This document shows positions 7,148-46,312 of a stretch of DNA of 50,054 bases, piece by piece. Numbering within the stretch: the first letter of the stretch is position 1; each line of letters begins with the position of its first letter. Source of the stretch: a virus (Duplodnaviria; Caudoviricetes); the IMG/VR virus record IMGVR_UViG_3300020358_000009, positions 1-50,054 of that record; one strand, given 5' to 3'. Made by a program: the position numbers and the translations under genes. A model generated the notes under the pieces. It did not search any database and had not been told where the DNA came from. It saw only the letters and a list, made by a program, of their open reading frames with translations.

Positions 7148-9372
7148 TGTATATACAAACTTTATATAAAATACTTGAAAATGTTATACCTGAAAAGGCA
7201 TTAAATTCTTACAATAAAAAGAAAGCATGGAAGTATGGATATAATAAAGAATATGACATTGTTATCATTTCAAAAGACGGCACAATTGGTGATGTATATG
7301 AAATACAAAAACTAAGAATAGCTTTACCAAAAGTAAAGGACGTTCATAGTTTTAAAAATAATTATTGGGATAAGTTAGAATATCCTAAAGAATTAAGTAA
7401 AATAAAAAATGTGTTTGATTGGGATAAATATCCTGATTCTTTTAAAGAAAAATGGTATGACTATATTGACAAAGAATTTGAAAGACGTGAAGAAGGTTTT
7501 TGGTTTAATAACAAAGGTGTTTCTACTTATATTACTGGTTCTCACTACATGTACTTGTGCTGGACCAAGATTGATGTTGGGCAGCCAAACTTTAGGGAAT
7601 CAAATAGATTATTCTACATATTCTGGGAAGCATGTAAAGCAGACATTCGTTCATACGGAATGTGCTATCTTAAAAACAGGCGTTCAGGCTTTTCGTTCAT
7701 GTCCTCATCAGAGCTGGTGCATGCAGCAACCACCTCACGTGACTCACGTTTTGGCATATTGTCAAAAACAGGGTCGGATGCTAAGAAGATGTTCACTGAT
7801 AAAGTCGTTCCCATATCACTTAACTATCCCTTCTTCTTCAAGCCCATCCAAGACGGTATGGACAGGCCGAAGACCGAGCTTGCCTATAGAGTACCTGCCT
7901 CCAAACTTACCAGAAAAAAACTTGATGCAAATCAGGCCGTTGAGGAACTCGAAGGTCTTGATACAACCATCGATTGGAAAAACACAGGGGACAACTCCTA
8001 CGATGGGGAAAAATTAAAAATACTTGCTCATGATGAAAGCGGCAAGTGGGAAAGACCTGACAACATACTAAATAATTGGAGAGTTACAAAAACTTGCTTA
8101 AGATTAGGTTCTAGAATTATTGGAAAATGTATGATGGGAAGTACATCTAATTCAATAGAAAAAGGTGGTGGTAACTTTAAAAAGTTATATGCAGATTCTA
8201 ATGTAGTAAAACGAAACAAGAATGGTCAAACTAAAAGCGGATTATATTCACTTTTCATCCCTATGGAATGGAATTATGAAGGGTTTATAGATGTTTATGG
8301 ATACCCTGTATTTGATGAGCCAAAAGAAGATTTAGAAGGGCCATTTGGAGATGTTATAGATGAAGGTGTTATTAATCATTGGAATAATGAAGTAGAAGGT
8401 TTAAAGTCTGATCCTGATGGATTAAACGAATATTATAGACAATTCCCTAGAACAGAGTCTCATGCATTTAGAGATGAAAGCAAACAATCATTATTTAATT
8501 TACAGAAAATTTATCAACAGATAGATTATAACGATTCTTTAATAAAAGATAGGTTTGTAACACGAGGTTCTTTTAGTTGGAAAAATGGCGTTCAAGATAC
8601 AGAAGTTATTTTTTCACCAAATGATAGAGGAAGATTCTATGTTTCTTGGACTCCTAACAAACAATTACAAAACAAATACTATTATAAAAACGGAGTTAAG
8701 TATCCAAGCAATGACCACATGGGAGCGTTTGGTTGTGATAGCTACGATATATCAGGAACAGTAGGTGGTGGAGGTTCTAACGGAGCTTTGCATGGAATGA
8801 CTAAGTTTCATATGGATGAAGGCCCAACTAGTGAGTTTTTTTTAGAATACATTGCTAGACCTCAAACTGCAGAAATATTTTTTGAAGATGTACTTATGGC
8901 TTGTGTGTTTTATGGAATGCCAATTTTAATAGAAAACAATAAACCTCGTTTATTGTATCATTTTAAAAATAGAGGATATAGAGGTTATAGTATGAATAGA
9001 CCTGATAAAATTTACACTAAATTATCAAAAACAGAAAAAGAATTAGGAGGAATACCTAACAGTTCAGAAGATATAAAACAAGCACACGCAGCAGCTATAG
9101 AGTCGTATATAGAAAAGCACGTAGGGTTTGATATGTCAGGTACATTTAGAGAGTTAGATGTAATAGGTTCTATGTATTTTATTAGAACATTAGAAGACTG
9201 GGCAAGGTTTAATATTAACAACAGAACTAAGTTTGATGCGTCAATAAGTTCAGGTTTAGCTATAATGGCTACACAAAAAAACCTTTATCAACCCATTAAA
9301 AAGAAATCAAAAATAAAACTTAACTTTGCAAGATACGACAATAAGGGAAGTTATAGCCAAATTATACAATAA
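7147..9372 (+). CDS. terL: terminase large subunit
   Basis: Walker A-like LKNRRSGFS, Walker B LAHDESGK, MGST coupling motif, nuclease FGCDSYD. Confidence 0.93.
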   Translation: MYIQTLYKILENVIPEKALNSYNKKKAWKYGYNKEYDIVIISKDGTIGDVYEIQKLRIALPKVKDVHSFKNNYWDKLEYPKELSKIKNVFDWDKYPDSFKEKWYDYIDKEFERREEGFWFNNKGVSTYITGSHYMYLCWTKIDVGQPNFRESNRLFYIFWEACKADIRSYGMCYLKNRRSGFSFMSSSELVHAATTSRDSRFGILSKTGSDAKKMFTDKVVPISLNYPFFFKPIQDGMDRPKTELAYRVPASKLTRKKLDANQAVEELEGLDTTIDWKNTGDNSYDGEKLKILAHDESGKWERPDNILNNWRVTKTCLRLGSRIIGKCMMGSTSNSIEKGGGNFKKLYADSNVVKRNKNGQTKSGLYSLFIPMEWNYEGFIDVYGYPVFDEPKEDLEGPFGDVIDEGVINHWNNEVEGLKSDPDGLNEYYRQFPRTESHAFRDESKQSLFNLQKIYQQIDYNDSLIKDRFVTRGSFSWKNGVQDTEVIFSPNDRGRFYVSWTPNKQLQNKYYYKNGVKYPSNDHMGAFGCDSYDISGTVGGGGSNGALHGMTKFHMDEGPTSEFFLEYIARPQTAEIFFEDVLMACVFYGMPILIENNKPRLLYHFKNRGYRGYSMNRPDKIYTKLSKTEKELGGIPNSSEDIKQAHAAAIESYIEKHVGFDMSGTFRELDVIGSMYFIRTLEDWARFNINNRTKFDASISSGLAIMATQKNLYQPIKKKSKIKLNFARYDNKGSYSQIIQ
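7409..8017 (+). CDS. candidate overprinted +1-frame ORF with lipoprotein-like signal (alternative start 7457)
   Basis: 202 stop-free codons, local GC rise, basic/hydrophobic/LTTC N-terminus. Confidence 0.45.
   Translation: MCLIGINILILLKKNGMTILTKNLKDVKKVFGLITKVFLLILLVLTTCTCAGPRLMLGSQTLGNQIDYSTYSGKHVKQTFVHTECAILKTGVQAFRSCPHQSWCMQQPPHVTHVLAYCQKQGRMLRRCSLIKSFPYHLTIPSSSSPSKTVWTGRRPSLPIEYLPPNLPEKNLMQIRPLRNSKVLIQPSIGKTQGTTPTMGKN
9321..9328 (+). promoter_or_regulatory. -7 box TAACTTTG for the portal gene, inside the terL 3' end
   Basis: TAnnTTTG about 45 nt upstream of the portal ATG. Confidence 0.45.
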
Positions 9373-11879: not shown

Positions 11880-12977
11880 ATGGAAATTAAAGTAAAATCA
11901 CTAGATTCTGTGCCAGAAAAATCTACACAGGAAGTAGAAGAAACTCTACTAAAAAAACACGAAGAAGAAAATGACGATAAATCTACTGATGTTGTTGAAG
12001 AACAACCTGTAGAACAAGTAGCCGAAGATTCGGCAGTTGAAAGTCCAACTTTAAAAGACGAAGACGTTCTTTCATATATTAAAAATAGATATGATAAAGA
12101 TATATCTTCAGTTGATGATTTGTTTTCTGAAAGAGAACAGTCAGATAATTTACCTGAAGAAGTATCTAAATATTTAGATTATAAAAAAAATACAGGTCGT
12201 GGATTTGAAGATTTCGTAAAAGTAAATAAACAATACGATAATTTAGATGACGATCAAGTATTAGCAGAGTACTATTCTTTAACGGAATCAGATTTAGATA
12301 AAGAAGACATCCATTATTTAATGGAAGAAAAATTTTCTTATGATGAAGACATTGATGATGAAAAAGATATAAAGAAAAAGAACATTGCTAAAAAAAGAGA
12401 ACTTTCAAAAGCTAAAACATATCTTAATGAGTTAAAAGAAAAATACAGAATTCCTCTTGAGTCAAGTGGGAATTCTATTTCAGAAGAACAAATTAAGGAA
12501 ATTGAAGCTTACAAGAGTTATATTAAAAATTCTCAATCAGCTAACGAAATTGCACAAAAGAAGAATGAGTTTTTTGTTAAAAGAACTAATGAAGTTTTTA
12601 ATCCTGAATTCAAAGGTTTTGAGTTCGAAATAGGAGACAAAAAAGTAAAATATTCTTATGGTGATGTTAACGAGATGAAGTCTAAGCAAAGTGATTTAAA
12701 CAATCTAGTCAAAAAATATGTAGGCGATGATGGTTTAATAAATGATGCTACAGGATGGCATAGAGCGCTAAGTGCTGCTATGGATCCTCAGCGATTTGCT
12801 AGTTATTTTTATGAGCAAGGAAAAGCAGATGCGATTGGTGACGTTACTAAAAAAAGTAAAAATGTCAATATGTCAATTAGGCAAACTCCTCAATCAATTG
12901 GAGATACAGGTTTTAAAGCTAGACAAGTTTCAGATACGAGTGGCAGAGGGTTAAGAATTAAAAGTAAAAAAAAATAA
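11880..12977 (+). CDS. putative capsid scaffolding protein
   Basis: Acidic and helical; FYEQGKADA motif; lies between portal and capsid. Confidence 0.7.
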   Translation: MEIKVKSLDSVPEKSTQEVEETLLKKHEEENDDKSTDVVEEQPVEQVAEDSAVESPTLKDEDVLSYIKNRYDKDISSVDDLFSEREQSDNLPEEVSKYLDYKKNTGRGFEDFVKVNKQYDNLDDDQVLAEYYSLTESDLDKEDIHYLMEEKFSYDEDIDDEKDIKKKNIAKKRELSKAKTYLNELKEKYRIPLESSGNSISEEQIKEIEAYKSYIKNSQSANEIAQKKNEFFVKRTNEVFNPEFKGFEFEIGDKKVKYSYGDVNEMKSKQSDLNNLVKKYVGDDGLINDATGWHRALSAAMDPQRFASYFYEQGKADAIGDVTKKSKNVNMSIRQTPQSIGDTGFKARQVSDTSGRGLRIKSKKK

Positions 12978-22601: not shown

Positions 22602-23375
22602 ATGCCAGCAGAAATTAATTATACCTTAACATTTAGTGAATCAGTAAAAGGATGGCCTTCTTTTTATAGTTACATGCCTGATATGATATTAGGAATGAAT
22701 CAATATTTATATACTTTTAAAGGTGGTAGTTTATATCGACATAATACCAATGAGATAAGAAATAGATATTACGGAATAGACTATGATTCTACAATTACAG
22801 GTGTATTTAATCAAGAACCAACAACTGTTAAAGTGTTTAAAACCATTGAGCTTGAAAGCGATGATTCTTGGGATTGTTCAATAACAACAGATTTAGGGAG
22901 TGGTTTTATGGATGAAAACTATTTTGAACAAAAAGAAGGGGCTTGGTTCGCTTTTATTAGAAGAATAGGTGGTAGTCAAGACTTTGCTCAAAGATCAACA
23001 CAGGGGATTGGTGGTTTTGCATCAACAACAGGGGCATCACCAGGTACAATTGAAATAGTATTTAATGTAATAATAAGTAATATTATTAATTACGGAGATA
23101 CTGTTTTTTATAAAGACCTTTTTGGCACAATTAAAAAAATAGGCCCAATAACAGATATATCTTCTGATAGAAAAGAAATTTTAATAGACGCATCAGACCT
23201 TACCCCAATTGGACAAGCTGTACCTGTGGGTTCATATATTTTTACAACTAAAGATAGTGTTGCCGAATCTTATGGAGCAACAGGATATTACATGGAGTTT
23301 AAATTAACAAATAACAGCAAGACGCCTGTTGAACTATTTACAATAGATTCAGATGTCTTTAAAAGTTTTCCTTAG
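22602..23375 (+). CDS. muzzle/stabilization protein C-terminal-like polypeptide
   Basis: TLTFSESVKGWPSFYSY..D...LYTFKGG.LY.HN...KVFKTIELES...KEG.WFAFI...GYYM...ELF motifs. Confidence 0.65.
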   Translation: MPAEINYTLTFSESVKGWPSFYSYMPDMILGMNQYLYTFKGGSLYRHNTNEIRNRYYGIDYDSTITGVFNQEPTTVKVFKTIELESDDSWDCSITTDLGSGFMDENYFEQKEGAWFAFIRRIGGSQDFAQRSTQGIGGFASTTGASPGTIEIVFNVIISNIINYGDTVFYKDLFGTIKKIGPITDISSDRKEILIDASDLTPIGQAVPVGSYIFTTKDSVAESYGATGYYMEFKLTNNSKTPVELFTIDSDVFKSFP

Positions 23376-23381
23376 ATTTTG

Positions 23382-23389
23382 TATCTTTG
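23382..23389 (+). promoter_or_regulatory. -7 box TATCTTTG
   Basis: TAnnTTTG just upstream of ATG 23395. Confidence 0.55.
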
Positions 23390-23394
23390 CATTA

Positions 23395-23805
23395 ATGAAA
23401 TTTAATGTTAGAAAATTAAATCCCCTAGACTACGAGTCTATTTTAATTAAATGGTGGAAAGACTGGAGATGGACACCACCTCCAAAAGATTTTTTACCTG
23501 ACAATGGAGAAGGTGGATTTATTGTGTATGATAATGATATTCCTGTATGTGCAGGATATATTTACATAACTAACTCTAAAGTAGGATGGTGTGATTGGAT
23601 AATATCTAATTTCGACTATAAAGACAAAGTAAAAAGAAAAGAAGCATTAATAGAGCTTGTAAAAATATTAACGCATACTTTAAAACTGTCAGACTGTAAA
23701 TACGCATATGCTTTAATAAAGTCTGATTCTTTGATAGAACATTACAAAATAAATGGATATATTGAAGGAGACAGTTATAATAAAGAAATGATAAAAGGAT
23801 TATAA
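23395..23805 (+). CDS. GNAT-fold-like protein preceding the ejection proteins
   Basis: PVCAGYIY.TNSKVGWCDWIISN; position analogous to T7 gp13. Confidence 0.55.
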   Translation: MKFNVRKLNPLDYESILIKWWKDWRWTPPPKDFLPDNGEGGFIVYDNDIPVCAGYIYITNSKVGWCDWIISNFDYKDKVKRKEALIELVKILTHTLKLSDCKYAYALIKSDSLIEHYKINGYIEGDSYNKEMIKGL

Positions 23806-26792: not shown

Positions 26793-29700
26793 ATGGACGA
26801 AGAGATTTTAAAAAACATATGGAACGCATTATCTAGTGACAAAAAAACAGAAAGTGATTTTGAAACTTGGAAGTCAAACTTTTCAGGAAACTCTGAAGTT
26901 CAAGACAATGTTCATGTATATCTTACTCAAAAAGGATATACTAAAAATGACCTTGAAACTTGGAGAACTAATCTGGGAATAAAAAAAAAAGACAATTCCG
27001 ATTTCACTTCAGAAGAGGTCGTTACGGAATCCACTACAGATGTGGAAACAAATCCGTCCTCCTTGGACTCTTCTTCAACAACAACAAGCGTTGATGTACC
27101 TTTAATAGAAGAGACTTTAATTGACTTTCCTAATGCGCCAGAAAGAAAAGGTGTGTTAGAAAATGAAGATGGTTCTGTATCTACACATAAAATGAAAACC
27201 GAAACCTTAGATGGTAAGAATTGGGTTTCATTCCCTACAATATTTCAAAATGAGAACGGAGAGTTTGTTGACATGTCTGAGCAAGCAGAATCAGATTGGA
27301 AATCTGTTTACGAAGAAGCTAAAAAAAGAGGAGAGGTTATTGATTTTTTAGAAGATAAAGATTCAGCTATTAAATATGGAGAAGGAGCTTGGAAGCAAAA
27401 ATACAATGCCAATAAAAAAAATAACTTACTTGAAGAATCAGGATATTTAGCATATGCAAATGACCCTGAAAGAAAGAAGTTTATGTCAATACTTGATAAC
27501 GAAGAATTAAGTGCCAATCTACCTGATTACGTTAAAAAAGACTATGAAAAACAATACGGATTTGTTAACCCTGAAACAGGGGAAACAGAGTTTAAAAAAG
27601 AATCCGAAATAAACCCAAGTTTATTAGAAGCTATAAAAGAACATGATTCCATGACTGGAGAAGTAAAAGCTCCTAACTATGTTGACGTTGATATTGATGA
27701 TGACGATTACAGTAAGCTAGGAAATAATGTAAAAAATATTCTTAGAAAGCAAGAGATAGATGTAGAAGATTATTTAAAATGGCAAAAGAAAAACACACGA
27801 AATGAAACAAAAGTTTATAAGTGGATGAAAACCCTTTTGCCAAATGAGGAAGGTGATCAATATTTCGAAGAAAAAAATGCCTATGAAAAAGTACAATCTT
27901 ATAAAACAGCTCAGCTAAATCAAATAACTAAACGATTGGAAAAAATCCAATCTACTATGAATTTGACCTCAGACAGGAATGAATTGAGAGAGCTTGAGAA
28001 ACAAGCAGATGAAGTTAGAAAAGAGTTTTATGCTAAAGTACAATCAGTTACTGAGACTATAAATTACTTTCCTAAATTTAAAGAATATACAGAAGATGCT
28101 GACTTAAGAAGAAGAAAAGCAATGTATAAGGCTGCTCAAGAAGGTGGTTTGTCTGAGGGAGGTCAAGCAATGGTTGAGTTGGCTGCTGTAACAGGTAATG
28201 GTCTTGTAGGATTTGCTACAGATTTTTTTGGTGGAATACCTGGTTTTTTTGACCAAAGAATTGCTACTCTAGGTGGAGAAAATAAGTTTGATGGTAAAGG
28301 AGTATTAAAAGGTCTTGAAGAAATGTTTACAGACTCTGCAGAAAGCTTAGAGGGAGAAACAGGGGCTGTACAGAGACAGGCGTTTATAGAGGGTAAGCCT
28401 GTTTTTCAAGGAGGAAATCGATATATTGTTGATGGTAACGGAACTGTATATGACCAAAACACCAACATAAGAATGGATGGCATCATTCCAAGTGAAACGA
28501 TTAAGAAAATTGTAAGCTTATCCAAGGATGTAACAGAAACTGAAGTTAATTGGACAGGAGGAGCAGTACTTCAAGGCGGTGTAAGTACACTTGTAAATTT
28601 ATTTGCATTAATAAGAACAGGTGGTAAAGTAAAAGGCGCTCTTGGATTAAAGGGAAAAAAAGCAGGATCAATAGGAATGGGTATTTCCTCATTTGTTTCT
28701 AGTGTTGCAGGTAATGTAGAGGATGTACGCTCTCAATTAGTGGCTTCAGGAATGAGTGAAAAGGAGGCGTTAGATATTTCTGTTAATGCAGGTCAAGCAA
28801 TAGCCACTCTTGATGGTATTTTCTCAGGACTAGCAGGAGGAAACGAAAAACTTCTTGTTGGTTTTCAAGGAATTAAAGACCAAATTAAAAACTTAGCAGT
28901 AAAAGAAGGTAAAAAGTTTACAGTAAAACAACTTGTAGATAAGGGTAAAGGCTTAGTAAAAGAAAACGCTAAGGAGCTTTTTATTGAAGAGCTTCCAGTT
29001 TATTTTTCAGAGAAAGGCATAAATCACTTAGTAAATAGACATATTGGAAATGATGTTTTAAATGATAAAATAACAAGAGCAGGGATTACAGAAACAGTAG
29101 TTATGACAGTAGGAGCTACCTCAACTTTAGGTGGTAAGAAATTATTGTCAGGAAATAAGAGAGCGAATTTAGTAAGATTAGCTGCAGCAAATGTACAAAA
29201 CTTACAAGCTACACTAGATGTTTTGGTTAAAGAAGGTTCTTTAACTCAAATAGAAGCTTCAAATGCTTACACAGAAATATACAATGCACAATCAGCTGAG
29301 TTAAAAACTCAAGGTACTGTTAAGATGACTGAAAACATTGAGCCTGCTGCTGATTTATTAACAGAAAGACAAAACTTAATAAATAAAAAACAAGGTTTAG
29401 AAGGCCCTGGCAAAGTTGATATTGATAAACAAATAGCAGCTGTTGACCAACAGTTAGACGCCCTGTATGAAAAAGATAAGATAGAAGTTCAAGAACAATT
29501 AAAAAAAGAAAACGATGCCATTCAAGAGCCAAGCACAGAGAAGCAAGTGTTACAAGATGATGCAGCAAGCAAAGAAGATGGGGCAGAAACCGAAGTGGGA
29601 CTGCAACAAGTGGGAAAAGGAGACGTTGAGTCAGACACTACCCAAGAGGGTGACACCGAAACGGAAACAGAAACCGACCAAGCTATCGACACGACTACGC

Positions 29701-32700
29701 AGACAGATACTGAACAGTTAACAGACACCACTTCTGAAACAGAAGTGATGAGTGTGAACAAGGAAAGAGTAGACTCTATTGTTGATGGTATAGTTGAGAA
29801 AACAAAAAGCCGAAACGTAGGAAAAAGCACTAACCCACAAAAAGTTGCAGACAACGCAATTGAATATATAAAAGGTTCTAAGTTATTTGAACAGTCAAAT
29901 GATATAGAAAGAGAAAATATTATTAGAGATGTTAGCAAACAACTAGGCGTAGAAATTAAAGCTCCTACTGCCAAGAAATTATTAGGCATAAAAAGAATAG
30001 GAAAGCCTAAGACTATTAAAGTAAAAAGTGACTATGCTGCAATGAAGAAAGATCTTCAGAAAGAAGCTAAGGTTGCTAGAGATGCTAAAAACGATGTAAA
30101 CAGCAGAAGAAAGGGTTTACAGAATGCTATAGATTTAGTTGTTAAAGCAGGTAACATTAGTACTAAGAAAGCAAACTCATTGCTTAAAAAAGTTTCTAAT
30201 GTAAATCTTTATAACGCTAAAAAGGTTCAGGACGTAATAGACTTTACTACAAAAGCCATGAATGATGCTGAGTATTCTAAAAAGTTAGATAAGGCAAAGT
30301 CAATTCAGAAGGCTATTAAGAAAAAACTAAAAGGCAAAGAAGCAGGTTTATCAGATTCTGCTAAAAAGTTTAGTGAAGTTAATCCGAGTAATGTAGCTGA
30401 TATCGATGTGTATTTAGAAAAGGCTACTGAAGTAAGCAAGGGATTACAACCAACTAGAAAACCATCTAAGGGGAAACTTAAAGTAAGTAAACCTTTTGAT
30501 ATTAAAAAAATGGACGAGTACTCCAAGAAAGAAGTAGAGTTAGAAGCAGAAAGAAACTATGAGCTTGCAAAAGAATCTTTTCAAGAACTTACAGGTCTAG
30601 AGCCAGGAGATTTAACTCTTGACCAAATGAAAGATATGATGTATGAGATAGATGGAGTTAAAACAGACTCTGAATCTGACAATAAAACATTAAAAAAGAA
30701 GGAAGCTGTAATTGATAAAGCTGTAAAAAACGCATTTAAGAATACTAAAATAAACATAAAAGGTGCTATAGAGTCAGGAGATATAAAGGTTACTAAAGAA
30801 CAAAAGACTTTGATTGACAAATTCCTAAATATGGATTTAGATTTAATGACTACTAAGCAAAAAATGGAGGCACTAGATTCAATCATAAACTTCGAACTTA
30901 ATCAATCAACAGGTGGAATGGATGCTGTGTTTAGTCAGCAGGTTGGTGCTGTTAAGATGAATAAAGCAAAAAATCAAAAAATTGAAACACCTAAGAATCC
31001 AAAACTTTTTGGGCTAGGAAGTGTGTGGAATAAATATATATCAACACTACCTAATGTATTTGAACTTGCTTTTAAATCACAAAAGAAAGCTAGGATTATA
31101 ATGGATGCCATAGGTTTAAATGGGATAATAAATGGTAGTGCAAAAGCTCAAACCGAAGGTGCTAATACAGAAAAAGATTATGCGAATGCTTTTTCAAAAA
31201 AGAAAATGCAAGATGGTATATACTTTGACGAAGCTAATGATACTGAAAGAGCGATACTAGCAGATGTAAGGAGATTTACTCCAGGGACAGAGGCTGAACA
31301 GCAAAAAGAATTTGATGATAGTAAGAATCTTATTAAGGAAACTTACGAAAGACTTATGGAGTCAGGGGACAAGTTAAAAGTTAAAAAAGGTGAAATTGTT
31401 AAAGCTCAATATGACAAACTTTTAAAAGACTCTAACTCTATAGCAGATGTTGAAAGTAAAGTAGATCCTGTAAATTTAGAAGGAGTAAAATATGTTACAG
31501 AGATTTGGTCTAAGAAGTATAATGATTTAGCAAATGTTTCCTTAAACATATACAATAGAAATTTAGGAAAAGACGTTAATTATACACCAAGAAACATAAG
31601 AAATGTAGCTCAAGTAGAGCCTGAAGTAGATATTACTCAACCTGTATTTAATCCAGAAGGGTTACAGAGAAAGAATGCTTACGATAAAAAAACAGGTGTT
31701 TTAAAAGAAGCAACTAAACCTTCAAGCTTAGGGAAGGGGAAAGTTTTAAATTTAAGTTTTGATTCACAAAACATGAGCAACTACAAAGCTGCTTTAACTG
31801 ATATTTATACAGCATCTTCAATACAACAAGTAAAAGGTGCAAGAGATTCAAAAGCTTTTAATGAAGTTTTTACAGACCCTGAATCAAGAGATATAATAAA
31901 CAAAAGAATTAATGGATACGTTGATACTAAGAGAGGTAAAAATTACATTGATGGAAAAAGTAAAAGAGCTTTAAATCGTTTGAACAAATTAGCTACGCTA
32001 GGTGTGGCTAGAGTTTTAGGTGGGCCTACTCAGATGCTAAAGCAAATTGTTCCAATATTCAATACAGGTGTAAATGCAGGTGTTGTAAATACTTTAGAAG
32101 GAGCAAAGCTAATGTTTAACCCTGATGTTAGAAAAGCAATAAATGAATCAGGACTTCCAATTGCAAATAGAGGTATATCATCTCAAACAGATATTGAGAA
32201 TGCAGATAGTAGGATTGCAAAAAAAGCAAACACATTTGAAGGTAAGGCTATTGATATAGCTGATTCTGTAAATAAAAAGACATTAGAGATTTTCTTAGTT
32301 AATCCTGATGTTGCTACTGCTAAAGCTTCTTTTATTGCTTACTATTTGAACGCAATGAATAAGAAAGGCGTTAAAACAAGCGAGGTAGATTTTACAAAAC
32401 CTCTTGATAAAGAAGCTGCACAATTTGCACAGCAACAAGTAGATAGACAGCAAAACACATCTGACCAAGATTTGCAAGGAGATTTATTTACTAGTCAAAA
32501 ATTTGGCCCACAATTAGTTCGTAAAACATTATTTCCCTTTGCAAACTTCTTGTTAAATCAAAAAACAAGAATGTATTCTGACATTAATACCTTGTATAAT
32601 AACCCTACAGCTGAACCTGGTGCAAAGAAAAGAGCAATACAATCGTTAGTAGGATTAGGTCTTGAGACAACGGTGTTTAATTCAATTGGATTAGGAATTA

Positions 32701-33410
32701 CTCAGGCCATGGCTGCCGCTGCTAGAGCTTTATCAGGAGAGGATGAAGAACTAGGGTTAGAAGCGGATATGAAGCGTGAAGAAAGAGATGAAAAAGATTT
32801 TATGAACAGGGTTAAAGGAAGAACAGGAAATATGATTGCTGATATTGTTTCTCCTATACCTGTGCTTAATGACCAACTTTTAGATAAGATTAATGGAGTT
32901 ATGGGTATATTTCAAGATGATGAAAAAGACCCTTGGAAGTTTTTTTCCAAGACAGATAAAGGAATAAATGAAAGACTAGGTGTTTTAGGAATAGGTATTA
33001 AAAAGGGAGCAATACTTACAGACATGATTAAAACAATTGTTACAGGTGAAAAAACCACAGAGTATATGGGTAAGAAGAGTACGAAAAAGATTGAACCTGA
33101 TAAACTTGAAACTTTAAAGGGAATTGCAATGGCATATACTCTTCACTTGATAGGTGTTCCTATTTTAAACTCAACTGAAGTTGGTTACATTTCTGAAAGA
33201 GCTTATAAAAATATAGGTAAAATGAAAGAGAAAGAGCCTGAAACAATAAAGCCTATTACAATCAAGCAAATGGAAAAGATAAATCCAAAAAAGGCTGAAG
33301 CAATGAAACAAGAGGTAGCAAGAAAAAAGAGAATTCAAAAAGCTGACCCTAGATTAAATTTAGCTAAAAAAAGAAAAGAAGAAATATTGAGAAGAGTAGA
33401 CAGAAAGTAA
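26793..33410 (+). CDS. large internal virion/ejection protein (2205 aa)
   Basis: Last late gene; mostly helical with Gly-rich membrane-like segments. Confidence 0.7.
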   Translation: MDEEILKNIWNALSSDKKTESDFETWKSNFSGNSEVQDNVHVYLTQKGYTKNDLETWRTNLGIKKKDNSDFTSEEVVTESTTDVETNPSSLDSSSTTTSVDVPLIEETLIDFPNAPERKGVLENEDGSVSTHKMKTETLDGKNWVSFPTIFQNENGEFVDMSEQAESDWKSVYEEAKKRGEVIDFLEDKDSAIKYGEGAWKQKYNANKKNNLLEESGYLAYANDPERKKFMSILDNEELSANLPDYVKKDYEKQYGFVNPETGETEFKKESEINPSLLEAIKEHDSMTGEVKAPNYVDVDIDDDDYSKLGNNVKNILRKQEIDVEDYLKWQKKNTRNETKVYKWMKTLLPNEEGDQYFEEKNAYEKVQSYKTAQLNQITKRLEKIQSTMNLTSDRNELRELEKQADEVRKEFYAKVQSVTETINYFPKFKEYTEDADLRRRKAMYKAAQEGGLSEGGQAMVELAAVTGNGLVGFATDFFGGIPGFFDQRIATLGGENKFDGKGVLKGLEEMFTDSAESLEGETGAVQRQAFIEGKPVFQGGNRYIVDGNGTVYDQNTNIRMDGIIPSETIKKIVSLSKDVTETEVNWTGGAVLQGGVSTLVNLFALIRTGGKVKGALGLKGKKAGSIGMGISSFVSSVAGNVEDVRSQLVASGMSEKEALDISVNAGQAIATLDGIFSGLAGGNEKLLVGFQGIKDQIKNLAVKEGKKFTVKQLVDKGKGLVKENAKELFIEELPVYFSEKGINHLVNRHIGNDVLNDKITRAGITETVVMTVGATSTLGGKKLLSGNKRANLVRLAAANVQNLQATLDVLVKEGSLTQIEASNAYTEIYNAQSAELKTQGTVKMTENIEPAADLLTERQNLINKKQGLEGPGKVDIDKQIAAVDQQLDALYEKDKIEVQEQLKKENDAIQEPSTEKQVLQDDAASKEDGAETEVGLQQVGKGDVESDTTQEGDTETETETDQAIDTTTQTDTEQLTDTTSETEVMSVNKERVDSIVDGIVEKTKSRNVGKSTNPQKVADNAIEYIKGSKLFEQSNDIERENIIRDVSKQLGVEIKAPTAKKLLGIKRIGKPKTIKVKSDYAAMKKDLQKEAKVARDAKNDVNSRRKGLQNAIDLVVKAGNISTKKANSLLKKVSNVNLYNAKKVQDVIDFTTKAMNDAEYSKKLDKAKSIQKAIKKKLKGKEAGLSDSAKKFSEVNPSNVADIDVYLEKATEVSKGLQPTRKPSKGKLKVSKPFDIKKMDEYSKKEVELEAERNYELAKESFQELTGLEPGDLTLDQMKDMMYEIDGVKTDSESDNKTLKKKEAVIDKAVKNAFKNTKINIKGAIESGDIKVTKEQKTLIDKFLNMDLDLMTTKQKMEALDSIINFELNQSTGGMDAVFSQQVGAVKMNKAKNQKIETPKNPKLFGLGSVWNKYISTLPNVFELAFKSQKKARIIMDAIGLNGIINGSAKAQTEGANTEKDYANAFSKKKMQDGIYFDEANDTERAILADVRRFTPGTEAEQQKEFDDSKNLIKETYERLMESGDKLKVKKGEIVKAQYDKLLKDSNSIADVESKVDPVNLEGVKYVTEIWSKKYNDLANVSLNIYNRNLGKDVNYTPRNIRNVAQVEPEVDITQPVFNPEGLQRKNAYDKKTGVLKEATKPSSLGKGKVLNLSFDSQNMSNYKAALTDIYTASSIQQVKGARDSKAFNEVFTDPESRDIINKRINGYVDTKRGKNYIDGKSKRALNRLNKLATLGVARVLGGPTQMLKQIVPIFNTGVNAGVVNTLEGAKLMFNPDVRKAINESGLPIANRGISSQTDIENADSRIAKKANTFEGKAIDIADSVNKKTLEIFLVNPDVATAKASFIAYYLNAMNKKGVKTSEVDFTKPLDKEAAQFAQQQVDRQQNTSDQDLQGDLFTSQKFGPQLVRKTLFPFANFLLNQKTRMYSDINTLYNNPTAEPGAKKRAIQSLVGLGLETTVFNSIGLGITQAMAAAARALSGEDEELGLEADMKREERDEKDFMNRVKGRTGNMIADIVSPIPVLNDQLLDKINGVMGIFQDDEKDPWKFFSKTDKGINERLGVLGIGIKKGAILTDMIKTIVTGEKTTEYMGKKSTKKIEPDKLETLKGIAMAYTLHLIGVPILNSTEVGYISERAYKNIGKMKEKEPETIKPITIKQMEKINPKKAEAMKQEVARKKRIQKADPRLNLAKKRKEEILRRVDRK
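26981..27030 (+). other. candidate -1 frameshift signal (A10 run plus downstream stem)
   Basis: ATA AAA AAA AAA GAC followed by the ATTCCG...CGGAAT stem; -1 frame stays open to TGA 27092-27094. Confidence 0.5.
29515..29721 (+). CDS. nested +1-frame small basic protein (MPFKSQAQR family-like)
   Basis: A-rich start context with A at -3; sequence resembles stand-alone small phage proteins; local GC about 50%. Confidence 0.6.
   Translation: MPFKSQAQRSKCYKMMQQAKKMGQKPKWDCNKWEKETLSQTLPKRVTPKRKQKPTKLSTRLRRQILNS
29747..29760 (+). repeat. GATGAGTGTGAACA repeat, copy 1
   Basis: Exact 14-mer also at 41534, 46299 and inverted at 37999. Confidence 0.85.
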
Positions 33411-36910: not shown

Positions 36911-38149
36911 TTAGTTTAAAGTCAATAAATCTTTTTTAAAATGATTCAAAGTATAGTTCTTTTTTTTGCTTACTGCCTTATATATTTTACTTTCTATGCC
37001 ACCTTCTGTAAAAACCCAAAACACTTCGTTTTCAAGTCTTTCTTTGGTGGTCATTCTATCTCTAGATTGCCAATAACTAGTAGCACTAAAATCTATGTTG
37101 TAATATACTAAATACTTAGCATTTCGTAAAGATATACCCTCACGACCTGATACAATTTGCAATGCTATAGATTTATCCGTAGAGTTAAACTCTTCAAGAT
37201 CGGTACATATTTGGTTTCCAAATACTTCTTTCAAAGCATTAAGCTCTTCTTTAAACTTATAGAATATTCCTATTTTATTACAACAAAAATTATCGTATAT
37301 GTATTCAGCTTTAAATAAATCTAGCACCATAGATTTGCCACTCTCAAACTTAACAGTACCACTATACATTTGATGTAGCTTTTGCATAAGCTTTACACTT
37401 GTGTCTGCAAGTATAACCTCATCAGAACCCTCAACTACTAAGTCTTTTTTTAATTTAGAACATAGTGAGTGTATTTTATCTGGAGCATCAACAAACAATA
37501 CCTTTTCTTTAATAGAAGATTCAAAACCTGCTTCTTTTTGAGTGTATGAAATCGTATAAGGATTCATGTCATAAATTATAGTTTTTTTGGCATTAGAATA
37601 ATCATTAACCATAAATCCACCAATTCTTTTAGTAGTAACGGTTACGTAATCTCTAGCAAACTTATAAAAGTTAGAGTACTTATTAAATGGATTATTTGGA
37701 ATGGCATATACTTGATGATACATTTGACTATAAGATTCAGGTGTTGGTGTACCTGAAAGCAATATAACATATGGTTTGTTTCTTCTAATAAGTTCAGATA
37801 CAGCTTTAGCTCTTTTACTTGGCTTTGGAAAAGCCCCCATACCATGTGCTTCATCACAAACTACGGCATCCCAACCCACTTGGTCAATCTTGTGGAGTGA
37901 TTCGTAGTTTATAACCTGCAGTTCATAGCCAGGCTCAAGTATATTGTAGTCTGACTCTATTGAGCTTATCGCTCTCTTCTTCGTGATGAACAATACTCTG
38001 TTCACACTCATCATTTTATTTAAAATTCCTAGAGAGGTAAGTGTCTTTCCTGTTCTTACTTCCATAGATAGATACAGAAATTTTTTAGCTGCTAAAACTT
38101 CTGTTCCTTTATCTATGATGTTTTGCTGGTAGTCTCTAAATTTTATCAT
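36911..38149 (-). CDS. SF2 (SNF2-like) helicase
   Basis: FRDYQ, MEVRTGKT, VVCDEAH, LSGTP, SGREGISL, QSRDR. Confidence 0.9.
   Translation of the reverse strand: MIKFRDYQQNIIDKGTEVLAAKKFLYLSMEVRTGKTLTSLGILNKMMSVNRVLFITKKRAISSIESDYNILEPGYELQVINYESLHKIDQVGWDAVVCDEAHGMGAFPKPSKRAKAVSELIRRNKPYVILLSGTPTPESYSQMYHQVYAIPNNPFNKYSNFYKFARDYVTVTTKRIGGFMVNDYSNAKKTIIYDMNPYTISYTQKEAGFESSIKEKVLFVDAPDKIHSLCSKLKKDLVVEGSDEVILADTSVKLMQKLHQMYSGTVKFESGKSMVLDLFKAEYIYDNFCCNKIGIFYKFKEELNALKEVFGNQICTDLEEFNSTDKSIALQIVSGREGISLRNAKYLVYYNIDFSATSYWQSRDRMTTKERLENEVFWVFTEGGIESKIYKAVSKKKNYTLNHFKKDLLTLN
37999..38012 (-). repeat. GATGAGTGTGAACA repeat, copy 2 (inverted)
   Basis: TGTTCACACTCATC on the + strand, inside the helicase gene. 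Confidence 0.85.
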
Positions 38150-41492: not shown

Positions 41493-41548
41493 TGTTGAGC
41501 GCTGAGTTGGAGCAGCGCATCTGACTCCATAATGATGAGTGTGAACAA
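41493..41548 (-). ncRNA. structured 5' leader of the ssb-like gene (three-way junction)
   Basis: TGTT/AACA, ACTC/GAGT and GCGCTG/CAGCGC stems; contains repeat copy 3. Confidence 0.45.
41534..41547 (+). repeat. GATGAGTGTGAACA repeat, copy 3
   Basis: Exact 14-mer, intergenic. Confidence 0.85.
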
Positions 41549-46125: not shown

Positions 46126-46312
46126 GTTACCTCCTTGGAGGGGCGTCTTTCCGTCCTGTCAGTCTTATTGTAATTATTGGTTTACTACCTTGAAGCTTGG
46201 AGTTTCAAGGCGTGAGTTCCAATTTAACATTTAAGCATTACAATGGCCTACATTAGCGACAACTAAGGATTTTTAATAACTCACATGAATAATTTAAAGA
46301 TGAGTGTGAACA
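46126..46312 (-). ncRNA. candidate structured ncRNA / leader
   Basis: Nested TGTC/GACA, ATTGTAAT/ATTACAAT, ATTGG/CCAAT, CCTTGAA/TTCAAGG stems, then a CG-GAAAGA-CG hairpin and CCTC-CAAG-GAGG. Confidence 0.55.

Follow-up and report, generated by a model that had tools for sequence, protein, structure and literature searches.

A small basic-protein gene nested in the +1 frame of a giant phage gene, with signs of movement between virion genes

What maintains a complete reading frame for a small, strongly basic protein inside a giant phage gene that reads the same DNA as an acidic linker? The question is raised by a 50,054-nucleotide stretch of a virus of the Caudoviricetes (IMG/VR record IMGVR_UViG_3300020358_000009, positions 1 to 50,054; termed here the window). 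At the end of a late operon within the window lies a giant gene (26793-33410, + strand) encoding 2205 amino acids and, inside it, on the same strand and in its +1 frame, a complete open reading frame (ORF) of 68 codons (29515-29721, +) that covers host codons 908-976. The explanation favored here, with a probability of roughly 60%, is that this ORF is an old gene conserved at the level of its protein, that it is translated from its own ATG, that together with the overlying host frame it forms a movable two-frame cassette, and that its product binds nucleic acid within the head.

A preliminary description, drawn from the letters of the window alone, had proposed a basic ORF in the giant's +1 frame beneath an acidic main-frame linker, with an A-rich start, an in-frame stop upstream and a locally raised guanine-plus-cytosine (GC) content, and all of these features are present. 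The small protein begins MPFKSQAQR, has an isoelectric point (pI) of 10.96 and contains 20 lysines and arginines (K+R) versus 3 aspartates and glutamates (D+E); a core of the form M-P-F-K-S..Q..Y..W..T..L-P is conserved and is followed by a K/R tail, and helices are predicted at residues 6-22 and 30-38. Read in the giant's frame, the cassette (29514-29720, +; host residues 908-976) becomes a 69-residue linker of pI 4.05 with 21 D+E and 3 K+R. The ATG is preceded by TAAAAAAAGAAAACG at 29500-29514, with a small-frame TAA five codons before it, and GC makes up 31 of 60 bases at 29581-29640; over the nested ORF it is 48%, versus 34% for the giant gene.

Selection on the nested frame

A search based on the peptide yielded 141 relatives, of which 80 were kept: 71 are nested in a +1 frame--54 within giants and 17 within a gene of about 400 amino acids located between portal and capsid--and 9 stand alone. 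Because a set selected by the peptide is circular, the first selection test, which was performed on it, was replaced by a host-anchored test, in which loci were chosen through a neighboring gene (23353-23805) and the best 80 of 168 were retained. Among these, 57 reach the giant and 41 can be read for at least 1400 codons; 39 of the 41 carry the nested ORF, as counted with a pattern composed after the sequences had been seen, and the remaining two (L134 and L136) share a 5' deletion in the nested gene. Other ATG-started +1 ORFs of at least 36 amino acids occur in these giants at only 0.0008 per host codon, so that the nested ORF is present beyond chance. Thus a check proposed in the preliminary description, namely whether other giants keep the +1 ATG and its ORF, finds that nearly all keep a member of this family.

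The ratio of nonsynonymous to synonymous polymorphism (pN/pS) was computed for 36 dereplicated loci from host-protein alignments, using pairs of at least 45% identity, which are not independent; where the host frame was split (L060 and L063), a sequence error was taken to be the probable cause. Over the nested stretch pN/pS is 0.34 in the +1 frame and 1.00 in the host frame; in the upstream and downstream flanks these roles are exchanged, the host frame giving 0.40 and 0.32 and the +1 frame 0.98 and 1.18. Moreover, the nested peptide is often 72-87% identical between loci whose host flanks are about 20% identical. Over the nested stretch, in other words, evolution conserves the small protein and not the sequence of the giant, and the purifying selection expected of an embedded gene is found on the nested frame.

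The cassette also leaves traces of local duplication: in three giants (L011:4326, L096 and L098) a partial duplicate of its 5' end, 13 codons long, lies upstream of an intact copy in the same gene, with about 225 codons separating the two in L096 and L098.

Start context, recoding and addresses of the cassette

The likely initiation region of the nested gene (29500-29514, +) has adenines at -13, -12, -6 and -3, is predicted to be unstructured and carries the in-frame TAA at its 5' edge. Adenines at -3, -6, -12 and -13 together with low structure promote initiation in Flavobacterium, according to the accessible part of PMC6847099. The frequencies of adenine at -13, -12, -6 and -3 are 95, 92, 95 and 85% in 29 giant contexts, and 94, 92, 84 and 82% in 56 contexts within the portal-to-capsid gene, as against 33-42% among 2891 other +1 ATGs; the median folding energy is 0.0 kcal/mol for nested starts versus -4.1 kcal/mol for other +1 ATGs. 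An initiation signal of its own, such as an embedded gene should possess, is therefore seen in two host contexts, with a moderate matrix score. Because the frame is under purifying selection and its initiation context is conserved, the nested gene is very likely still translated from its own ATG, as far as sequence comparison can indicate; the first step of the proposed mechanism, which is close to certain in our estimation, is that ribosomes would initiate internally on the late mRNA at this A-rich, unstructured site.

An internal host promoter was considered and rejected: the promoter element TAHHTTTG occurs within 250 nucleotides upstream in only 3 of the 36 loci, the giant of the window not being one of them. 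RNA-library contigs from two studies match at full identity (29415-29844 and 29514-29735), but such contigs cannot give level, strand or frame, and one of the samples is possibly the source of the window DNA; they are not counted as support.

How the host frame was kept open across an older gene is suggested by the geometry of the two frames. A host-frame stop always begins at a wobble base of the small gene, where a T-to-C change is always silent. In 26 stand-alone copies from AT-rich loci the frame corresponding to the linker contains on average 5.3 stops, and every copy has at least one; by definition, such stops are absent from nested copies. Likewise, a wobble G in a lysine, glutamine or glutamate codon that precedes AA writes a host-frame glutamate in place of a lysine, and G is found there in 84/106 and 220/257 cases in nested copies versus 32/83 in stand-alone copies and 658/3069 in the giants' own frame (pair counts that are not independent). 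The host frame of nested copies accordingly contains 27-28% D+E versus 8% in the same frame of the 26 stand-alone copies, and recoding to G or C at wobble positions accounts for the raised GC content of the nested ORF. The host frame is thus selected for an acidic composition, its pN/pS of 1.00 indicating no selection at the level of sequence. The second step of the mechanism, which has good odds, is that silent T-to-C changes would clear every host-frame stop while wobble G would turn host lysines into glutamates.

The second host of the nested gene is represented in the window by a pre-capsid gene (11880-12977, +) that lacks the cassette. From its position and acidity this gene appears to be scaffold-like, and its equivalent in phage phi38:1 is labeled structural. 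When 80 loci were chosen through their capsid protein, the nested ORF was found within the first 110 codons of 63 out of 79 pre-capsid genes; the cassette-free ones are shorter (median 379 versus 399 amino acids) and at least two of them hold relics. All 10 records searched that have a copy in the scaffold-like gene or standing alone show one match each (two of these records are more than 90% complete), and no cassette was found in the giants of three scaffold-nested records (G004, G016 and G017) or of one stand-alone record (G005). In a tree of 121 peptides over 56 columns, obtained by a quick search, giant-nested and scaffold-nested copies interleave, and at least three host switches are forced by branches with Shimodaira-Hasegawa-like approximate likelihood-ratio test (SH-aLRT) values of at least 95. 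This suggests, within the limits of such a tree, repeated moves of the cassette between giant and scaffold-like genes, and hopping between these unrelated virion genes is considered probable.

The preliminary description had proposed that an ancestral gene was absorbed when the giant ORF read through it. The giant of G005 is continuous and has regions homologous to both sides of the cassette, with the small gene located after the giant's stop; hence the trapping of a gene between two ancestral neighbors is too simple an account of the cassette, and, since it also occurs in an unrelated gene, absorption by read-through of the giant is not what the comparison supports. Read-through at a gene end is nevertheless a plausible first step towards nesting, because in two loci (L457 and L529) the upstream gene reads into the small gene and stops inside it. 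Recoding would probably have occurred first at such a gene end, and stepwise; the stretch would then have become an in-frame acidic linker, and the finished cassette would have been moved by recombination between tolerant regions of late genes.

Other addresses were encountered as well. A further nested copy lies in the giant of a phage of 58% GC (L396). In a phage of 63% GC (L394:3291-5324, L478 and L506) the small gene overlaps the frame that is open ahead of the terminase large subunit; the apparent nesting there, within the N-terminal part of the terminase (L394 and L478), was left uncounted, the start of the host being uncertain.

The family, its product and rival explanations

Which of the two frames is older can be judged from their distribution. 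The preliminary description had stated that proteins of this kind occur as stand-alone phage genes, and they do, in unrelated phages and in bacteria as well; because of this, the nested frame is, on present sequence comparisons, the older gene. That an ancestral gene had persisted and was still translated, as also claimed there, therefore stands insofar as the small frame is older, selected and equipped with a retained start context, its translation being very likely as noted above. Although a word-indexed protein search with the peptide gave no candidate, a profile search matched 2703 clusters at E<=0.001, and an estimated 2700 or so viral stretches match one short family pattern. Annotated stand-alone copies are found in Streptomyces phage FlowerPower and in phage 023Pt_psg01, unannotated ones in P-RSP2 and C75C1; the cultured elemo phages of Flavobacterium sp. 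BAL314 carry a nested copy of 42 codons (NC_055853.1, from position 52379) that is missing from the annotation of the record examined. A chromosomal branch in soil bacteria comprises 291 matches, in Acidobacteriota, Gemmatimonadota, Chloroflexota and betaproteobacteria. Members of this branch (L255-L334), from several phyla, are 58-91% identical to one representative and have tails rich in K, R, A and T.

Among the best 150 profile matches, 55 are at least 110 amino acids long, and 50 of those have the motif at residue 1 followed by diverse tails; four long matches contain DUF5661. In long matches (P0061, P0081, P0093, P0125 and others) the motif is often followed by K-x-A or E-S repeats, which, we presume, resemble prohead-protease sites. 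The window peptide matched no family in Pfam, PHROG or NCBIfam. For phrog_1375, 10 of 40 members give a weak match at E<=1 (best E 5e-5; FlowerPower gene 48, E 0.012), and the window protein gives none. The nearest named Atlas cluster is DUF3008 (PF11450; score 0.83, 37% of members); membership in it was rejected, in that 0/40 and 0/46 members match its hidden Markov model at E<=10, with no hit among the 86 rows scanned. Both phrog_1375 and DUF3008 are of unknown function, and the window protein matches neither. A structure model of the nested protein consists of two helices and a basic tail (predicted local distance difference test score, pLDDT, 83.5; predicted template modeling score, pTM, 0.45); no solved relative was found, and a fold search was uninformative (best Z 3.4).

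These properties are compatible, tentatively and with odds a little short of even, with the nested product being a nucleic-acid-binding accessory protein of the head. It is small, basic and encoded in a late structural module, as an internal head protein should be, and nucleic acid is the simplest common ligand because the family occurs in such different settings. The third step of the mechanism, held with the same reserve, is that a two-helix mini-domain with a K/R tail would bind DNA or RNA and be packed into the head. The genomic context of the family was surveyed through the nearest large neighbors at 30 phage loci, chosen from 77: 12 are head or packaging genes, 4 are tail genes and 2 encode a chaperonin or endolysin.

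Several observations weigh against the explanation favored here. As regards a role in the head, 6 of the 30 phage loci have replication or metabolic neighbors and 6 have no annotated neighbor, and the 80 bacterial copies examined have ordinary, unconserved neighbors that offer no hint of function, a setting which a purely capsid role leaves unexplained. As regards conservation, no copy was detected in the cultured phages phi38:1, Calle_1, Gundel_1 and Panino, and hence the gene is accessory, being dispensable in some relatives; it is lost or damaged in others, by the 5' deletion of L134 and L136, by a stop at codon 32 in L142, and by an ATA start plus an early stop in L241; and by rule the cassette is absent from 16 of the 79 scaffold-like genes. 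As regards initiation, when other +1 ATGs are scored with a matrix trained on ordinary starts, the start in the window ranks at their 89th percentile, and the 90th is exceeded by only 28% of giant-nested and 11% of scaffold-nested starts. Finally, the tree that suggests movement is short, at 56 columns, and was searched only quickly.

The strongest rival, which is unlikely but deserves to be taken seriously, is that the product acts late in the infected cell, by binding RNA, the ribosome or host DNA, rather than as part of the virion. This would fit the chromosomal homologs in four bacterial groups with non-phage neighbors, the presence of the family in phages of very different hosts and capsids, the polymerase, helicase, reductase or metabolic genes that adjoin 6 of the 30 loci, and the dispensability of the gene. 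It fits less well with 16 of the 30 loci lying no more than two genes from head, packaging or tail genes, with both nested hosts being genes of the late structural module, and with 50 of the best 150 matches being proteins of at least 110 residues that open with the motif at residue 1, four with DUF5661, a domain which we take to be internal-head-like.

Considerably less likely is a partnership between the two frames: the basic peptide would bind the acidic linker encoded by the same DNA, an interaction that the preliminary description had also raised, and the linker of a hopping dual-coding module would store the peptide or escort it during head assembly, or out with an ejected giant. The two are of equal length and opposite charge (+17 and -18); the acidity is selected via silent sites rather than arising automatically (27% versus 8% D+E), and, compared with the 70 host residues on either side, the nested stretch is richer in acidic and poorer in basic residues. 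On the other hand, with a host-frame pN/pS of 1.00 composition alone is kept, stand-alone copies persist without such a linker, the giant of G005 has none, and scaffold-like N-termini are acidic with or without the cassette, so that the acidity may simply suit its surroundings.

A programmed frameshift from the host frame, which would truncate the giant or scaffold protein and end it in a basic tail, is improbable. A-rich runs do precede the ATG, and the family does occur fused to other domains, but those fusions carry the motif at the N-terminus rather than the C-terminus; among 36 loci the four host codons before the ATG take 21 different forms and share no slippery motif; the methionine is invariant while the overlying host residue varies among D, N and Y; and the ATG is usually preceded, within a few codons, by an in-frame stop. 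Least probable of all, to the point of being negligible, is that the ORF merely shadows a conserved linker of the host or is a relic that is no longer translated. Relics do exist (L241, L236 and the partial duplicate of L096 and L098), and the counting pattern postdates the sequences, but selection acts on the +1 and not on the host frame in a set chosen without reference to the small ORF, the small protein far exceeds its host flanks in identity, and two unrelated hosts show one and the same start context.

Surroundings of the cassette and comparison with known systems

The capsid and portal proteins of the window match those of Flavobacterium elemo phages, Maribacter phage Panino and Cellulophaga phages, and a crassvirus muzzle C-terminal domain is also encoded; the phage is of a marine Bacteroidota type. 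The giant protein has no match in Pfam or PHROG. Its position and the label 'structural protein' given to its equivalents in elemo and phi38:1 argue for a role in the virion, and on the same grounds it is likely a cargo protein that is ejected and is built of modular, shuffled domains. The cassette sits after a conserved N-terminal region of the giant, and other giants carry other domains at that slot. The parts of the giant 5' and 3' of the cassette vary independently (in L112, 61% identity upstream and 18% downstream).

The preliminary description had placed an 11-base-pair hairpin after the nested stop. A hairpin is present (29726-29750, +), with 10 of 11 pairs and an 8-base-pair core; it is not conserved, folding at or below -9.8 kcal/mol being found at this site in only 8 of 36 related loci, and, as it also lacks a U-tract, a role as terminator is ruled out. 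Its right arm overlaps a separate element, a conserved 14-mer present four times in the window (29747-29760, 41534-41547 and 46299-46312, all +, and 37999-38012, -). Of 36 related giants, 24 contain an 11-nucleotide core of this 14-mer at a distance of 9 to 530 codons downstream of the nested gene, and inserted domains in related giants are located between the cassette and the 14-mer. Within giants the 11-mer is invariant at silent sites, and it recurs outside genes; these properties, and the lack of an A-rich context, exclude an internal in-frame start at the methionine after the cassette as the cause of its conservation. Because four independent contigs (L001, L002, L096 and L112) terminate at an identical position within it, the 14-mer is probably a strand-nick site, and the cassette and 14-mer, both conserved, may serve as recombination anchors in giants.

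Elsewhere in the window, the terminase large subunit gene contains a 202-codon +1 ORF (7409-8017, +) with a basic-then-hydrophobic segment ending in Cys that resembles a lipoprotein signal; the long +1 frame from this segment is open in the window and in 5 of the 9 relatives displayed. Such an ORF may be a spanin-like gene in nested position, or a shadow.

No description of the nesting, the family or its motif was found in the literature searched, from which subscription journals are largely absent and in which supplementary small-ORF catalogs could list the family; a motif match in one phage paper proved to be an unrelated sequence end, and no virion proteome of a carrier phage was found. What the analysis adds is that single copies alternate between addresses, that giant and scaffold copies interleave on a tree, that wobble positions have been recoded, and that cultured phages carry the gene. 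The cassette offers a natural series from old gene to nested gene to movable gene, and a large unannotated family is exposed; wherever a giant phage protein has an acidic linker beginning DA(I/V)Q, the +1 frame of that stretch should be examined too.

The internal head proteins IPI-III of phage T4 are small, basic, late, dispensable and variable between relatives. The nested protein is alike in each of these respects, but no sequence or fold similarity to them was found. The giant resembles the crassvirus cargo proteins, as far as these are described in the available portion of Bayfield et al. 2023 (PMC10172136), in being very large and encoded in the late operon of a podovirus-like phage of Bacteroidota; the likeness is one of size and operon position, the giant having no database match. 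That portion mentions no nested gene.

De novo overprinting, as presented in the accessible part of Sabath et al. 2012 (PMC3494269), similarly involves two frames, one under low constraint, and takes the frame of wider distribution to be the older. Here the polarity is reversed: the nested frame is the widespread one, and what has been newly written is one part of a far larger host protein. The nested ORF was accordingly rejected as a de novo overprinted gene, in view of its stand-alone homologs in phages and bacteria and of a linker frame that is closed in 26 of 26 stand-alone copies.

Among tailed phages, spanins supply most of the known examples of nested genes, and in these the pair is fixed. 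Like the embedded Rz/Rz1 spanins of phage lambda, as treated in the part of Kongari et al. 2018 (PMC6139136) that was available, the present gene is small, lies wholly inside another on the same strand and in the +1 frame, over a flexible host linker, and selection acts on different frames in different stretches. An Rz1-type outer-membrane spanin (o-spanin) was nevertheless rejected, since the nested protein has no signal peptide, lipobox, hydrophobic segment or membrane segment and its host is the 2205-amino-acid gene. That part of the spanin study reports no family with embedded members plus overlapped or separated ones. The partner of a spanin is fixed, whereas the present family is embedded in two unrelated structural-module hosts and also has terminally overlapped and separate members, the steps of the recoding being visible in the sequences.

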